From Bdellovibrionales bacterium (GTDB taxonomy: Bacteria; Bdellovibrionota; Bdellovibrionia; Bdellovibrionales; UBA1609), in the NCBI GenBank assembly GCA_965261545.1, contig CBDHDF010000006.1, positions 192,001 to 256,000 on the forward strand: DNA of 64,000 nt. Direction: 5' to 3'. The position numbers and the translations under genes are program-made. Position 1 is the first letter of the stretch, and every line of letters starts with the position of its first letter. The notes beneath the pieces were generated by a model. It did no database searches and had not been told where the DNA came from. It worked only from the letters and a program-made list of their open reading frames with translations. This document shows, one piece after another, positions 56,929 through 64,000 of the stretch.

Positions 56929-57322
56929 GTAACTGCTCGCACCCCTTCTACACCAGACTTTTAGCCTAAAGACCATTTTTATACTAAAGTATTGATTCTC
57001 AAGCCTCCCCATTTAATAATTCTTTCGTGAATACAAGAAAACAATCCTTACGAAGCGAAATTGAAAACCTCCAGAAGGAATCTAAGAAGATTCTTTCTGA
57101 CAAGAGTATCCCACGAGAGACTAAACTATTTATTCAGTCCATGCTGACCATTATCACAGTTGTAGTGACTTTATTTTTGGAAAAAAAGACTCGTAAAAAC
57201 TCCAGCAATAGTGGGCTGCCCCCTTCTCAGAACTCTGGTAGCAATGGGAACCGTAATAAGGAAGGGGCTGAGGAAGACAGCAAGAAAGGATCAAGGCTCG
57301 ATAACAGTAAGGACACAGAGAG
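56929..57322 (+). mobile_element. IS66-family element remnant: left end plus 5' of transposase (ORF from 57027), cut by IS4
   Basis: Starts GTAACTGCTC (IS66-type end); KTRKNSSNSGLPPSQ motif. Confidence 0.75.
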
Positions 57323-57335
57323 CAATGCCGTTTCC

Positions 57336-58265
57336 TTAAGCCACCACACCCCTCTGCCTCTGCGTTAAGCTATTTCTTTTAAAAGAACTCCCAGCCCTTT
57401 TGATAGACCTTTCATAGCTTCTTTTGAAGTGCCTCCTCTTCTCCATTGAAATCTTCATCAGCAACTTTATCTGCTTCCTAAATTTCTGATAGAGCCCCGC
57501 AACAAAAAGGGGGATGCTATCCATTATGAAATCAAGAATCAGTTTAAAGTTAGGTTTTTTGTAGTCATTTTTTACCAACTGATTCACACTGTCTTCATCC
57601 TCATTTATGCTCATTTGAATCTTTGTATAATTGAAGAGCCAAAAATAAGAATACAGCTCTTGCAATATTCCATTAAGGCTTGTTGAGTGCCACTGCTCCA
57701 TTTTCATTGTCGATGTAAAATCACGAAATGTCGTTTCTATTTCCCAACGACGAGAGTAAAGAGCAACCATATCCTTCTTGTCCAAGGAGCCATGCGGAAG
57801 ATTAGTGGCCAAAACAGAGAACTCCCCAGTCTTTGGGTTTTTATACTTATAGAGATGAATGACCACCCCCTCAATAACCATTTGTGAATACCAACCTGGG
57901 CCATTAAATAAATTTACGATGGGGATAAAAGTAGAGCCTCGCTTACAACGCGCAATAAAGAAGTTACTGGCTTGAGCATGGGCCTTAATAATCTCTGTAG
58001 ATAAATAAAGCCTATCGTAGAGAGTTATGCTATTACTCTCAAAACTACCTATCATTTGAATAGCATTGGCGATTTCGTTGAGAGCGGGAGAATAGCAAAG
58101 ATTCTTTGTCACACCCGATAAAACGTCATAAGCATGAGATAGATACATACGTAAGAAATGAGTTTCCATCTCATTTGGGCAAGGGTACCCACAATAACCC
58201 TCCTTTAAAAGATCTTTAGAGCGAGGAAGTGCTAATTGGTCGCCATCTATGGCATAGATATAAAA
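57336..58265 (-). pseudogene. IS4 transposase, 3' part (5' part at 59987-~60364)
   Basis: FYIYAIDGD, LYDRLY, YSRRWEIETTFR; removing ISL3 gives in-frame RKRFHGFYIYAIDG. Confidence 0.85.
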
Positions 58266-59986
58266 GGGTATATCCGAGTTTCTCAACAGAAAATGGGCCT
58301 AATTTCGACGTTGCAGAATTACCGCATTAAAAACCAAGAAAATAATTCAATTTCCATGATTTATCCCCCTCATTACTTTACCCATAACAAAACCATGGTT
58401 TAATCTCTTAATTTACTTATTGGAAAATAATACAGGAGATGCCATGGTCTTGAATAAGTTTATTATAAAGATGTTGAAATTATCATTCTTAAAAGTGACT
58501 TGGGTTAAATTTAAAAATCGAAATCAAGAACTTCACTTAGGGGTTAAACCCCATAAGAATGGCTGCCGCTGTCCTCATTGTGGACGCCGCTGTAAGATAC
58601 TTAGATGCTTAGAAGAAAGAGTGTGGCGAGATATCGTCGTGTGCGGTACCCCCATTTATTTCCATTATTCTCCGAAGGAAGTTCTGTGTCCCACTCATGG
58701 TCGTATTATGGAGAGAATTCCTTGGGCCGACCACTTCAGTCGAGTCACCTATCGTCTGGAACTAACAATTCTGACCCTGACCAAGCAGATGACCCAAAAA
58801 GCCGTTTCAGAGCTTGTCAAGATACCCACATCCACCTTATCTGATCTTATTCATCGAATCATCCACAGGGAACGAGATGGTCACAAAATTCGTGGTTTGG
58901 AGGTCATTGGAGTCGATGAAATTTCTTATGCTAAGGGAAGGAAGTTTATTACCTTGATTTACGACATGAAGAAAGGCTGTGTCGTTTGGATTGGAAAAGG
59001 TAAGGGTAAGGAGACAATAGACTCCTTTTTTACAAAGGAACTCAGCCAATATCAGCGAGACAAAATTAGAGTGGCTTGTTGTGATATGGCTCAAGGCTAC
59101 ATCTCCTCTATCAAGGAGCATTGTAAGAATGCTACTCTCGTTTTGGACAAATTTCACATTATTCAATCCCTCAACAGGGCTGTGGATGAGGTGAGAAAAG
59201 AAATTTGGAGAGATGCCTGCAAGAAGGACAGAAAGGCTATTAAGGGAACTCGCTGGTTGATAGCCTACAGTTCATCCTCTCGTAGTAAGGCCCAAACTCG
59301 TAAAATTAACCTCATGGAGAAATCTAACAATAAAATATTCAGAGCATGGCTGCTTAAAGATAATTTTGAGCATTTCTGGGATTATGTGAGTCCAGGTCAT
59401 GCTGCGAATTTTCTGAATGCCTGGATCACTCGTGCCTTAAGATCACGCATTGATTCTATGAAAAAGTTTGCCTTGATGCTCAGGAAGCACCAAGAAAATA
59501 TTCTTTCCTTCATTAAAGATCCTGTCACAAATGCCAAGGCTGAGGGAATCAATCGCCTTCTAAAGATCATAAAAAATCGGGCTTCAGGATTTAAGAACCT
59601 ACAGGGTTTTGAGAATATGATTTACTTGTGTGCTGGGGATTTGGATATTGTTGGAAGTTTCCCCAAGCGTTTTTGTACATTATAGTTTTTATTGTCGATC
59701 AACATTTCTTTTTCCAATTCACCTCCCCATACTAACTCCGCCAAGATGAGTCAGTTATCCACAGACTCATCCATGGCGACGCTGCGGCTATGGCCCTCGG
59801 AGCCACAATAAAGCAGCGCTGCTGTGGGTGAGTCTTGTGGATAACGGCGGCTCTCCACACAAGTGATTTGGTAGCCCTGTCCTCCGTGTTTTTATGTACA
59901 AATCTTAGGAATAACCTGTACATCCAGTTTTTAGCTATTTCCCTAGGGAATTTGGACTTTAGGCTCCGAGAAACTCGGATATAGCC
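58266..59986 (+). mobile_element. Intact-looking ISL3-family element (1721 bp)
   Basis: 19-bp TIR GGGTATATCCGAGTTTCTC / GGCTATATCCGAGTTTCTC; 8-bp TSD ATATAAAA at 58258-58265 and 59987-59994. Confidence 0.93.
58444..59685 (+). CDS. ISL3 transposase
   Basis: CPHCG, IGVDE, CCDM, LDKFH, TNAKAEGIN..IK.RASGF. Confidence 0.93.
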   Translation: MVLNKFIIKMLKLSFLKVTWVKFKNRNQELHLGVKPHKNGCRCPHCGRRCKILRCLEERVWRDIVVCGTPIYFHYSPKEVLCPTHGRIMERIPWADHFSRVTYRLELTILTLTKQMTQKAVSELVKIPTSTLSDLIHRIIHRERDGHKIRGLEVIGVDEISYAKGRKFITLIYDMKKGCVVWIGKGKGKETIDSFFTKELSQYQRDKIRVACCDMAQGYISSIKEHCKNATLVLDKFHIIQSLNRAVDEVRKEIWRDACKKDRKAIKGTRWLIAYSSSSRSKAQTRKINLMEKSNNKIFRAWLLKDNFEHFWDYVSPGHAANFLNAWITRALRSRIDSMKKFALMLRKHQENILSFIKDPVTNAKAEGINRLLKIIKNRASGFKNLQGFENMIYLCAGDLDIVGSFPKRFCTL

Positions 59987-60468
59987 ATATAAAAGCCATG
60001 AAACGTTTTTCTCAATGGTTCGTAGTCTGTAATCAGAGATTCAAAGATATTTTTAAAAAATAGGTAAGAAATACTTTGACGTATCTTGCTGAGACTGCTT
60101 TTGACTGGCATGAGAAGCAGGTCACCAAAATGAGTCCATACCGTCTTAAGAGCGATTTGGTAGCCTTCGTAATTTGTTCCGGAAATAAGATAGATAATAG
60201 TAAAAAAGAAAATTTGAGGATTAAATTTTCGATTCCTTTTTTGTTTTTCTGGATCGACAAGGTGCTCTGGCTTGAAGGAAGAATCAAGTTTTGGTAGAAT
60301 AAAATGGTCATCTGTGACGCGAACTCGTCATTTGGGGGCTTTCGAGATCAATATTGGATTGCATGTGACTTACTCCTTGGTTGAGGGTTGGGTGTAAAAT
60401 AAAACAAGTCTTATTCTTGTCGATTTATCTAATAATTTCAAGAGATTTTTCTTAAGGAAACGGCATTG

Positions 60469-60653
60469 CGCCCTGGACGGAATCCGTAGCTATAACCGAG
60501 GAAATGTTCCTCGTAGATGGGAGAGAGGATGCTGTCTACAACGGCCTTCTGGACAATCTTGTCCTCCAAGGCCAGGACACCCAAGGGTCTTGTGCCCCCG
60601 TCTGACTTGGGTATTTCTACCCGCAAGACAGGTTGCCCTTTGTAAGCACCCGT
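60469..60653 (-). pseudogene. Group II intron reverse transcriptase, second fragment (cut by IS4)
   Basis: GAYKGQPVLRVEIPKSDGGTRPLG..EDKIVQ..YE..F.GYSYGFRPGR. Confidence 0.9.
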
Positions 60654-62591
60654 TACTCCTCGGACACAATAGACAACTTTTCCATTGAAATTTCCATAAA
60701 TATATATAATCATTCACTTTATGCAAGTGGTCGTAAATATGCTCACTATCGTTGGCATCCACCTGAGGATTCTTCCCATTTAGCTTCGAACCATAGTCAA
60801 AGGAATGATAATGGCCCACCAAACAAAACATCAAAATCCATGGACAGCTCAGCTAAAAAGTGTCTATCAAAGCGACCAAACCACACGGATTCAACAGACA
60901 TACGAAGTTGTTGTTCCAAAAATAAAGAAACAATTAAAGCAGAAAGTAAAACAACAGAAAATAATGGAGGTTAAAAATGGAAACATCAGTAGCTCTTTAT
61001 TGTCGAGTGTCCTCAGATAAACAAGCTCAAGAGGGAACCATTGATTCACAGATTTCTAGTCTTCACGATTTCGCTAAGGAACACAATTTTTGTGTAGAGG
61101 AGGATCTTATATTTATGGATAATGGTGTGAGTGGCGCCACCCTTGTTCGTCCTGCTTTAGACTCTCTTCGCGACAAAGCTTTTTCTGGGGAGGTTACAAA
61201 GGTACTTGTGTTATGTCCAGACAGATTAGCTCGTAAATATGCCCATCAATTGATTCTAATTGAAGAATTTCAGAGGCTAGGTGTTGAAATTATTTTTTCT
61301 AATAGAGATATTACAAATTCACCCGAAGATCAGCTTTTGCTACAAATACAAGGAGTCATTTCAGAATATGAAAGAGAAAAAATTATGGAAAGAAGTCGAA
61401 GGGGTAAACTTCAAAAGGCTTCTAAGGGCTTTGTTAGCGTTTTATGTGGAGCCCCCTATGGTTATATATATATTCTGAAAACAGACTCCGCTGACGCACG
61501 ATATGAAATCCATCCAGAAGAGTCTAAAGTTGTTAAAAATATTTTTCAAATGTATTGCCGAAACAAACTAAGTATTAGAGCAATTGCAAAGGAATTAAAT
61601 ATAAGGGGGGTGCCTACTAGAAGACAACAAGGTATTTGGGGGCGTTCAACTATCTTGTGTATGCTTAAAAATCCCGCTTATTATGGACAAGCTGCTTTTA
61701 GAAAGACTATCAAGGTAGAAAGGTTGCGTCCAACCAAGTTCGCAAGAGACAATAATTTTTATCCAAAAAAACATAAATCAAGTTCTTCCAATCGAAATAA
61801 AAAGGATTGGATATATATTCCCGTTCCATCTATAATTTCTTCAAAAACTTTTCAAGATGCGTCCAGCCAATTGGAAGCTAACAAAAAACTTTCCTCTCGG
61901 AATAATAAAAAATATGAGTATTTGTTAAGTGGTCTTTTACGATGCAAAGAGTGTGGTTATTCGATCTATGGCAAACCTGCTTCTCACTCAAGGTATAAGC
62001 TTTGTTATTATCGCTGCATGGGACAAGATGGTTATAGGTGGCCAGCTAAAGGTAGAGTTTGCTCATCTCATCCCGTAAGAGTTGAAGTTTTAGATGACTT
62101 AGTTTGGGAACAAACAGTTAAATTACTTGAAAATCCTCAGACAGTTATAGATGAGTATACAAGTAGAATTCATGAGCAAAAAGGTGAACAACAATCATTG
62201 GAAAAATTAATTGTAAAAAAGGCTCAGGAGATTCGTCAAATAACACATGAAAAGGAACGTCTCTTGGATCTTTATCAAAATGGAACTCTAAATCTATCAG
62301 AAATAGAGTCACGATTAAAAAAAATAAGAGGAAAAATAAAGCAACTTGAAAATGAAAAGCAATCTTTAGAGTATGAGCAAAGGCAAGAAGGACAACAACT
62401 ACAGCTTGTAGATCAACTCCAAGAATTCCAAAAAAAAGTGAGTGCCAATTTAAAGGTATTGAGTTTTGAGCAAAAAAAGGAGATTGTAAGGCTACTGGTG
62501 AAGGAGGTTGAGGTGAACATTAAGGCAAGTGAAATTGTAGTTCGACACGTTGTGCCAACCTCCAAAAGTTTGCCATTGTGTCCGGGGAGTA
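60654..62591 (+). mobile_element. Minimal large-serine-recombinase element inserted in the intron RT gene
   Basis: Inverted ends TACTCCTCGGACACAATAGACAACTTT / TACTCCCCGGACACAATGGCAAACTTT (23/27); GT repeated at 60652-53 and 62592-93; removal restores the RT frame. Confidence 0.9.
60805..61020 (+). CDS. Small basic protein overlapping the recombinase start
   Basis: AAGGA before ATG; 71 aa; only other plausible gene in the element. Confidence 0.45.
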   Translation: MIMAHQTKHQNPWTAQLKSVYQSDQTTRIQQTYEVVVPKIKKQLKQKVKQQKIMEVKNGNISSSLLSSVLR

Positions 62592-62611
62592 GTGTGGACC
62601 CGACGATGTAA
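60977..62611 (+). CDS. Large serine recombinase (resolvase, recombinase, Zn-ribbon and coiled-coil domains)
   Basis: YCRVSS catalytic Ser, RPAL, DRLAR, PYGY, LRCKECG..YYRC..C; GGAGG RBS; stop lies outside the element end. Confidence 0.95.
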   Translation: METSVALYCRVSSDKQAQEGTIDSQISSLHDFAKEHNFCVEEDLIFMDNGVSGATLVRPALDSLRDKAFSGEVTKVLVLCPDRLARKYAHQLILIEEFQRLGVEIIFSNRDITNSPEDQLLLQIQGVISEYEREKIMERSRRGKLQKASKGFVSVLCGAPYGYIYILKTDSADARYEIHPEESKVVKNIFQMYCRNKLSIRAIAKELNIRGVPTRRQQGIWGRSTILCMLKNPAYYGQAAFRKTIKVERLRPTKFARDNNFYPKKHKSSSSNRNKKDWIYIPVPSIISSKTFQDASSQLEANKKLSSRNNKKYEYLLSGLLRCKECGYSIYGKPASHSRYKLCYYRCMGQDGYRWPAKGRVCSSHPVRVEVLDDLVWEQTVKLLENPQTVIDEYTSRIHEQKGEQQSLEKLIVKKAQEIRQITHEKERLLDLYQNGTLNLSEIESRLKKIRGKIKQLENEKQSLEYEQRQEGQQLQLVDQLQEFQKKVSANLKVLSFEQKKEIVRLLVKEVEVNIKASEIVVRHVVPTSKSLPLCPGSSVDPTM

Positions 62612-62956
62612 ATCGAACAGGTTTTGCACGAGGTTCTCGCCATACTCCTTCCATGTTAAATGGTCCACTCCCGCACTGGCTCCCCTATTCAAATAGAGGT
62701 AAGCCAAGTGGAGGGCTTCCACAGATACATGGTGAAGCAAGCAAGTGAGCTTACCATCCTTTCTCTTTGCTGCTATACGGACTTGCTCCGTCGCCTGTGA
62801 CACCTTTTCCCAACTCTGTGTTCGGCAGATGCTTTGACGGATTGAGTTCCCTTCAGTTCCACCCCTTCGCTCCAAGGACTCCGCTGGGCTTGTAGGCCCT
62901 TTGTTCGTCCTCTTCATCGCTACTATGAGTGGATCCGATTTCTTTATTTCGTTCAT
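62594..62956 (-). pseudogene. Group II intron reverse transcriptase/maturase, N-terminal fragment
   Basis: KSD..I...K.TNK...AE..ERR...GN, LLHHVS, ASAGVD..TW..Y, DLHRRVH; GGAGG upstream. Confidence 0.9.
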
Positions 62957-63405
62957 GGGTTACGGTTACCTCCTTTCCCATGTCGCCCGTCGCACATGAC
63001 GGGGTTAAATAAAGACCTCCCGAGGTCCCGAGATAAGATTCATATGTGCCAGTTTCTACGACGCCGTGGAGTCACCCACCAACTCACCATAGCGCTGGTG
63101 GGTATGTTGCGTTCGGCTACCATGACAGCCTCCGCACTCCAGAGTTCGGCATTTTCGACGCTCAATTATTTGGCCCACACACACCCCTACCGATACATCG
63201 CTTCGGCCTCACGGCCGACAGCGCACGGCTTGGGGAGAGAAGTGGTCGGTTGACCTTCCTCTCGGGGGACTCTAACCCCCTATCTTATCTCAGTTCGCCC
63301 GGCGAACCATGGCATTGCCCGCACTGATTGGCATGACTGATTCCCCTTAGCATAGCGTCATTGATGTTCTATAAAGACCTCCAATCTTTAACCAAGGAGG
63401 TCGAA

Positions 63406-64000
63406 ATGAGAACAAAGATGGATCATGAGCGTTACACAAAAATAAAATCATTAATAAAGGCAAATATTCCCGACCGAGAAATCAGTCGCCGCATGAAATG
63501 CTGCACCAAGACTCTTAGAAAGATAAGACGTGGTCTTTTAACAGACCCCAAGGATTGGAAGACCCAAAGAGAAATTCCCCCTTGGTCTTACGGTATAGAT
63601 TGGAAGATTATTGAGAAGGAGATTGAGGATAGGCATTGTTTAAGTGACGTTTGGGAGGAAAAATTTCTGAAGGTCATTAGCTACCCCCAGTTTACGAGGG
63701 AGTTTCATAAGCAATTTCCAAAAGCTGGCAAAAGGATTATTACCTTGCGTGATTTTCAGCCAGGCCACCAAGTTGAGGTTGATTACGCAGGATTTCAGCC
63801 AGAGTGGATCGATGAAGACCTTAATATTCATAAGGCCCATATATTTTGCTCAAATCTATGTTTCTCTCAGCGTATTTTTGCTTATGGCTCTTTGAGCGAA
63901 TCTAGTGAAGATTTTCTTCACGCTCACGTTCTGATGTTTGAATATTACGGTGGGGTTCCGAGAGTGGTTGTTCCTGATAATTTAAAGACTGGAGTGAACA
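63406..64000 (+). CDS. istA: IS21-family transposase IstA (runs off window)
   Basis: AAGGAGG RBS; HTH start; PGHQVEVDYAG, FEYYGGVPRVVVPDNLKTGV. Confidence 0.9.
   Translation, partial: MRTKMDHERYTKIKSLIKANIPDREISRRMKCCTKTLRKIRRGLLTDPKDWKTQREIPPWSYGIDWKIIEKEIEDRHCLSDVWEEKFLKVISYPQFTREFHKQFPKAGKRIITLRDFQPGHQVEVDYAGFQPEWIDEDLNIHKAHIFCSNLCFSQRIFAYGSLSESSEDFLHAHVLMFEYYGGVPRVVVPDNLKTGVN

Follow-up and report, generated by a model that had tools for sequence, protein, structure and literature searches.

A serine-recombinase element in a group II intron and the conserved C-terminal segment that its recombinase is predicted to gain on excision

The element and its insertion site

The window, a 64,000-nt stretch of DNA, contains a 1940-bp element with a large serine recombinase (LSR) gene inside the reverse transcriptase (RT) gene of a group II intron. 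The features at the locus are as follows.

60469..60653, minus strand: continuation of the intron RT (RVT_1 match), truncated in this copy at 60469, where the end of another IS lies
60652..60653, plus strand: GT crossover dinucleotide at the left junction; a single GT in the empty copies, two letters being shared at the joint
60654-62593: serine-recombinase element, 1940 bp, with terminal inverted repeat, GT core and empty sites
60654..60681, plus strand: left att arm, a 28-nt terminal inverted repeat with 86% complementarity to 62564-62591; equals codons 1-9 of the circle-only extension
60654..60755, plus strand: conserved head of the circle-only C-terminal extension, 34 codons (about 35 residues), motif IDxFS...H.LY..GR.YA.Y.W, without a start codon of its own
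60685..60713, plus strand: putative promoter-like match, TTGAAA-17-AATCAT, upstream of the small ORF and the LSR gene
60756..60974, plus strand: variable run-on of the extension, ending at TAA 60972-60974 and overlapping the small ORF in another frame
60805..61020, plus strand: conserved small ORF, 71 aa, overlapping the LSR start; a second ATG at 60811 fits the spacing to AGGA better
60977..62611, plus strand: LSR, integrated form, 544 aa, element-coded to codon 539
62564..62593, plus strand: right att arm with GT core, inside the LSR reading frame
62594..63307, minus strand: host group II intron, 5' part, in which 62594-62956 encode the RT N-terminus; assigned by identity to empty copies, 5' end approximate

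The element ends were set independently, by empty intron copies and by contigs that skip the element. Four copies of the host intron in the same genome are empty and carry one GT at the insertion place, and an exact 1940-bp skip at the element site was found in one contig in each of four out of four runs (one sample). GT stands at both junctions (60652-60653 and 62592-62593). Inverted arms around a 2-bp core, with no target duplication beyond the core, form a layout that fits large serine recombinases. The host intron matches Rfam group-II-D1D4-6 on the minus strand at 63052-63273 (E 7e-45), and removal of the element restores an RT frame that matches an intact 495-aa RT frame.

Five full copies of this variant (contigs C2, C6, C10 and C11) occupy the same intron site; they may be independent insertions or may have spread inside the intron. 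The same genome holds a sister variant at 97% identity, whose copies, two full and the others broken, sit in the GTPQG motif of other intron RTs (C11:871157-873096, C10:793053-794992, C7:146913-151829, C10:10146 and C11:368188). This motif, also used by many relatives, differs from the RT site of the variant described here (RVHT/GAY region), and the two LSRs differ non-synonymously at 28 codons. Two variants in two RT sites represent a small natural target switch. In the 97% variant the right core is always AC and the left core is GC, AA or CA, while the one empty site examined has AC. Family-wide, left and right cores were identical in only 31 of 55 automatic calls. Such mismatches may reflect mismatch-tolerant recombination, exchange between copies or mis-registered calls.

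The recombinase and its two C-termini

The LSR matches the Pfam families Resolvase (PF00239), Recombinase (PF07508) and Zn_ribbon_recom (PF13408), all above their cut-offs, and its structure model matches serine integrase structures (E 1.6e-20), which are also its top fold matches. A match to DUF4368 was absent at E <= 0.1. Within the multi-targeting TndX-like/DUF4368 clade of LSRs this domain is reported for 63% of members and lacking in 37% (PMC10083194), so that its absence is not decisive for clade membership. The model contains helices at 387-489; in the integrated form the zinc-ribbon domain is closed by strands at 508-524 and disorder follows after 533. A C-terminal extension would thus be an addition to a complete LSR fold.

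The original prediction stated that excision would rewrite the C-terminus of the recombinase. This was borne out by scripts run on the window and on the genome, and its arithmetic was exact (1940 bp, 544 to 645 aa). The same scripts confirmed the details: intron DNA supplies the final five residues of the integrated form, VDPTM, and the stop after them; in the predicted circle the last element codon, AGT at 62591-62593, joins in frame to TAC at 60654, and this frame stays open for 106 codons to the TAA at 60972-60974, two bases before the LSR ATG at 60977. The predicted circle form therefore has 645 aa versus 544 aa for the integrated form, and the 97% sister also gives 645 aa. A left-segment frame of this length was open in none of 200 dinucleotide shuffles, which is more than chance. 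The circle of this element is itself a prediction: no circle junction was found in the assembly or listed in the four contig runs, and contigs drop rare forms.

Among 120 listed LSR homologs, conservation stops at a PLCxGS-like motif, beyond which the tails vary freely in length. In 57 loci with called ends (see below), none has an in-frame stop within the last 30 codons before the junction, and the host-coded tails of the integrated LSRs are arbitrary, with a median of 19.5 codons. As read from these sequences, the crossover lies inside the integrase ORF, so that the free and the integrated LSR differ at their C-termini.

A conserved, selected segment beyond the junction

The end-finder was given 88 sequences: the window, five of the eight loci of one search, and 80 and two from two others. 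We kept 57 and dropped 17 that were incomplete, one without upstream DNA and 13 without a called end. The automatic registers of L101, L066 and L139 were wrong by eye, and these loci were kept in the counts as called. The elements are 1894-2206 bp long. RT matches occur in the flanks of 27 of the 57 loci, and in 13 of the 57 the empty site restores the RT motif PQG...SP, which independently confirms the junction register. Close relatives were found in two of 301 genomes of the class of genome G302 and in none of 300 genomes of the element's own phylum (best E 3e-28).

At 70% identity the homologs form 30 clusters. All 30 have a circle frame without a stop for at least 24 codons, compared with 5 and 8 for the other two plus-strand frames; the 20 clusters with identical cores on both sides are likewise all open over this length. 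Over codons 10-24, which lie outside the repeat arm, 30/30 clusters are stop-free versus 20.1 expected (P = 3e-6, a value that is optimistic, the clusters still being kin). The suggestion that homologous circles would stay open more often than expected is thus upheld. At 90% identity the frame is open in 47 of 48 clusters, and the single miss is a mis-registered call. A held-out plasmid set (12 of 47 records), absent from the profile, gave the same picture: eight of nine elements with called ends are open for at least 30 codons and the ninth for 60 after re-registering. The other three of the 12 loci had no end at the set threshold; a lower threshold gave 50 open codons in two of them, but no usable end in the third. 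Four of the plasmid loci (L129, L131, L134 and L138), together with L059 and L062, belong to a 2.2-kb subtype with a longer left region, in which L129, L131 and L138 have an extra annotated ribbon-helix-helix gene; the circle extension of this subtype is 25-34 codons long.

The head of the extension also carries a clear coding signature. Over codons 10-35, differences in 15 disjoint homolog pairs fall on codon positions 1/2/3 as 63/60/142 (P = 2e-11). Omega in the circle frame over this region is 0.27, with pS > pN in 15/15 pairs, while the other five frames give 1.28, 1.56, 1.70, 1.55 and 0.44. Alignments show clear motifs in both the near and the far group of homologs. By these measures codons 10-35 of the extension are under purifying selection. 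An antisense ORF as the source of the codon bias was considered and rejected, since it contains stops in many representatives and has the higher omega (0.44). On the minus strand of the window a 114-codon frame (60490-60834) starts in the left end and runs into the intron; its open state is not conserved in homologs. A duplicate or mimic of the small ORF was also rejected, the two profiles having no similarity (probability 0.2%). The two genome variants differ at seven positions of the left segment, four of them in the first 34 codons, and all seven are non-synonymous in the circle frame.

An in-frame ATG is absent from the first 15 codons in 30/30 representatives, and any start codon is absent in 20/30; in the element studied here these codons hold no in-frame ATG, GTG or TTG. 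A head without an ATG is readable only through a junction. We are confident that the extension head is translated and selected.

It was acknowledged in the original prediction that the S/N/K-rich extension could be a chance open frame. In that case the LSR would merely lack a stop next to a left end that happens to be open. The distal two thirds, which are low-complexity and unselected (see below), fit this caveat, as does the failure of the head to match any Pfam family or to give a usable Atlas match. Against it stand the codon-position bias and low omega of the head, the 30/30 open clusters, the held-out plasmids and the sequence of a phage WO particle. Chance is therefore a highly improbable account of the whole frame; on these codon data it is refuted for codons 10-35 and stands only for the distal tail.

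Natural proteins combining an LSR with the extension were absent from the protein collections. The matches there are read-through ORFs from host DNA into left ends and are too short for an LSR (16 of up to 269 aa, 36 of up to 487 aa and 24 of up to 284 aa); the 487-aa match was rejected as an LSR with extension and is an unrelated repeat. Searches of IMG/VR with attP-junction patterns gave 3 + 3 matches, none with an LSR, and the circle C-termini have no shared end motif. The extension is also carried by host ORFs that continue in frame into left ends: P0123, P0125, P0133 and window 60633-60974. ORFs of this kind include IS630-type and IS3-type transposases and a Rep protein, and relatives of the element also target such genes.

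A sequenced junction in Wolbachia phage WO

The best phage matches to the LSR are the recombinases of Wolbachia phage WO (36-37% identity). The WOVitA1 (sr2WO) recombinase has 579 aa in the particle record KX522565 and 550 aa in the prophage record HQ906662. The two forms part directly after the junction codon, in the same register as in the element family, and the attP of WOVitA1 was Sanger-sequenced from particles (10.1101/049049). The particle tail of 45 aa beats 2000/2000 shuffles on the extension profile; this is a short match of 8.2 bits, with E 0.009 among 53 targets. Furthermore, the phage gene upstream of the recombinase, gwv_1155, matches the small-ORF profile (E 4e-7). With an LSR 36% identical, the same junction register, a related tail and a homologous upstream small gene, phage WO carries the same module as the element. 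It differs in being a 65-kb phage, in a 45-aa tail with its own stop and in its target, a VNTR and not an intron RT. In the available text of the phage WO literature that maps attP, supplements aside, a changed recombinase C-terminus is not mentioned.

The small ORF and the distal run-on

The small-ORF motif is present in 39 of 57 loci, and a third-position excess in 10 pairs (42/41/99) places the ORF under selection. It has no Pfam family, and its Atlas matches are only sub-0.9 (0.79). A role as recombination directionality factor (RDF) is likely; in serine integrase systems the RDF is a small element-coded protein that binds at the zinc-ribbon/coiled-coil junction and makes attL x attR recombination possible. 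A consensus scan gave 10 promoter-like sites in the region versus 4.9 in shuffles; the putative promoter upstream of the small ORF matches the consensus at 9 of 12 positions. A terminator-like site was not found on the plus strand within the element.

The overlap of the extension with the 71-aa ORF in another frame was seen again here: the distal part of the extension overlaps the small ORF, which lies in frame +1. In 10 pairs this distal part shows 10 synonymous versus 109 non-synonymous changes in the circle frame, and 67 versus 65 in the small-ORF frame. Its distal ~70 aa are thus without amino-acid selection, and residues ~35-106 are most likely a run-on over the small ORF.

One ORF around the whole circle had been put forward as the central feature. 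It did not hold up as such: just 6 of the 30 clusters and three of the eight closest elements have a circle frame that extends to the LSR start, and the phage WO tail has 45 aa. On this comparison the whole-circle ORF is lineage-specific and is not the conserved feature. It might nevertheless be functional in this lineage, where ribosomes translating the long form would cross the small ORF and terminate two bases short of the LSR start; on multi-lap transcripts this could both couple LSR re-initiation and damp the small ORF. Whole-circle frames do cluster on a quick tree (10 of 53 rows, in two tree groups with three changes; 0/500 shuffles as low), one group having the frame in 7/7 members, and the lack of a plus-strand terminator-like site would permit such transcripts. 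In addition, 0/8 at-risk codons in the small ORF of this AT-rich element use the stop-making T, compared with 49/124 in the LSR and 9/21 at sites not at risk. This post hoc comparison is fairer than earlier stop-avoidance values of P(0)=0, which were driven by one Tyr codon choice, and may hint weakly at stop avoidance in this element's lineage. However, 24 of the 30 clusters stop earlier, and the stop deficit is not significant beyond codon 24 (24 vs 32.1, P = 0.09) or from codon 39 (15 vs 22.3, P = 0.07). The seven-member group is GC-rich, with a per-locus chance of an open frame of 0.15-0.43 for the six tested. All seven left-segment differences between the two genome variants alter amino acids of the extension, which speaks against selection on its sequence, and the phage WO tail is far shorter. 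A function of the full-circle length is therefore improbable.

Discussion

The ends of the element, the frame across its junction and the selection on the appended piece were established in this study, as was the same switch in phage WO, from a sequenced particle. It is tempting to speculate about what the piece does. We lean slightly towards a reading in which excision to the circle appends the conserved ~35-residue piece, and the piece likely docks on the zinc-ribbon domain and biases the circle-made enzyme to integration. In the integrated state, the left-end promoter would drive the small ORF, which likely encodes an RDF, together with a short LSR whose tail is arbitrary and comes from the host (5 aa here). 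The RDF site of this short form would be free, and LSR and RDF together would excise the element. On the circle, transcripts would cross the joined attP and enter the left end, and the LSR would gain the conserved piece, which would occupy or mask the RDF-binding surface. The long LSR could then join attP to a new attB despite the RDF gene on the same 1.9-kb circle. A circle of this size with an RDF candidate beside its LSR needs some way to integrate despite the RDF, and a blocker tethered to the enzyme in the circle alone would provide it.

Modelling predicts that most RDFs contribute a beta strand to the zinc-ribbon domain, and in models of SCCmec LSRs extra C-terminal strands could block the RDF site (PMC12286644). 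In engineered constructs described in the same source, an RDF fused to the integrase C-terminus promotes excision; an appended piece can therefore act either way. A complex model of LSR residues 300-539 with extension residues 1-42 scored 0.56 against 0.09 for the best of three controls, a weak pass that returned no interface and lies in a band (<=0.60) with only 18 of 157 solved pairs and both mismatches, which is more often wrong than right; the mark itself was reached by 116/157 solved and 2/215 mismatched pairs. The runs agree in at least 88% of contacts, with a partner pLDDT of at least 51. Folded alone, the head gives an extended stretch and a helix at 21-34 (pTM 0.27), with no beta hairpin; its reading as a strand comes from the alternating pattern of residues 9-17. 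Taking model and precedents together, the piece probably binds the zinc-ribbon domain. Whether the long form integrates and the short form with the RDF excises is, in our view, an even bet.

The main rival to such a directionality switch is a switch in activity or stability, in which the piece completes or stabilises the enzyme and the integrated form is weak or short-lived. The element would stay quiet until rare excision, or a circle from another copy acting in trans, yields the full enzyme. The selection on the extension head fits this equally well, the integrated tails are arbitrary (median 19.5 codons), and there are precedents: integration of Mx8 alters recombination efficiency (PMC6070905) and SSV integrases are split and inactive (PMC7253208). 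On the other side, the integrated form keeps its three LSR domains and the strands that close the zinc ribbon, and a pure activity switch needs no small ORF, yet a conserved, selected one adjoins the LSR. We regard this alternative as unlikely, though a serious one.

Alternatively, the piece might help to recognise the target (attB), a role that would matter only for circle-made enzyme. The family does use a conserved intron RT motif, a degenerate DNA sequence, with RT in the flanks of 27/57 loci. However, the two genome variants with nearly the same piece use different RT sites, the near and far groups share the GTPQG target despite different heads, and phage WO with its related piece uses other targets (PMC9203015). 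There is accordingly little to be expected from this explanation.

Returning to the directionality switch, its broadest form is tentative, and we would not count on it: throughout a widespread 2-kb family, many of whose members parasitise group II intron RT genes and whose module also drives Wolbachia phage WO, circularisation would tether a ~35-residue RDF-site blocker to the enzyme, so that a single gene would give an excisase in the integrated state and an RDF-proof integrase in the circle. If the switch is built in, every annotated copy in the family is a truncated form.

Myxophage Mx8 IntP is a tyrosine-type integrase. In Mx8 (and Mx9), as for the LSR, attP lies inside int, and integration creates a new 3' end and alters recombination (PMC6070905, PMC4383910); these are tRNA-targeting phages whose IntP is not homologous to the LSR. 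Bacillus phage vB_BsuS-Goe14 (OL580764) has a serine integrase with attP in its C-terminal coding region (10.1101/2021.11.22.469490). Its integrase is longer in the circular phage and shorter in the prophage, like the predicted LSR forms, and its authors speculate that the long form serves integration and the short form excision (10.1101/2021.11.22.469490). In contrast to the element, Goe14 is a 125-kb phage, 131 aa are lost, and no sprB-like RDF was seen in the part of that work available; the element has 2 kb, a selected piece of ~35 aa and a conserved small ORF. The Goe14 integrase is 26.6% identical to the LSR, and its tail is not detectably related to the extension profile (E 0.66). The principle of an attP inside the integrase gene is therefore already in print (Mx8, and the serine integrase of Goe14). 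These two systems are also closer than the attP-in-repressor switches to which the element had been likened: the junction lies in the recombinase, and no repressor domain was found among the element's ORFs. In mycobacteriophage integration-dependent immunity, recombination likewise alters the C-terminus of a protein, though there the gene that contains attP encodes the repressor, which sheds a degradation tag upon integration (PMC3694055), while here the recombinase gains a piece on excision. Archaeal SSV-type suicidal integrases also have the recombination site inside the integrase gene, which is whole only in the free form (PMC7253208, PMC5861418). They are tyrosine recombinases that split into two inactive pseudogenes, whereas the LSR belongs to the serine family and keeps three domains intact when integrated. 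The integrases of SPbeta, phiC31, Bxb1 and A118 share domain order, ~50-bp att sites, inverted arms, a 2-bp core and a small partner gene with the element; in those systems the integrase stays the same and the RDF by itself decides the direction (PMC12286644), unlike our reading of the element.

The literature searched (few subscription journals, supplements excluded) holds no description of the element family or of the selected piece. The main texts of Durrant et al., in the portions available, do not mention the arrangement or intron RT targets, and their supplements may list members. The choice of serine recombinases between integration and excision is under active structural study, and the family would offer the RDF-binding surface in a natural, covalently switched on/off version, within a 1.9-kb system of two genes that is easily tested. 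LSRs for DNA integration are mined from integrated copies. Cloning a member of this family in that way, for instance one of the phage WO recombinases that have been proposed as tools for Wolbachia (PMC9203015), would therefore miss the conserved piece and carry along a random host tail.

Other mobile DNA in the window and genome

Around the intron, the window at 57027-60468 and 63308-64000 is a dense IS nest with DDE_Tnp_1 and ISL3 transposases. A 474-bp unit at 59987-60460 exists in dozens of copies, and its end cuts the intron at 60469. At 63361 starts what we take to be an IS21-type transposase, without Pfam support. Elsewhere in the genome, C10:794993 (the right flank of one element copy) and C7:151830 (the left flank of another) are adjoining halves of one intron site, which is empty at C11:326134, C7:388519 and C2:602793; this split site points to rearrangement between element copies. 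Finally, a second multi-copy LSR family (22.8% identity) resides in the same genome at C11:177120, C11:193246, C11:879047, C10:13647, C10:1007869, C6:280760, C7:538764 and C3:8099.
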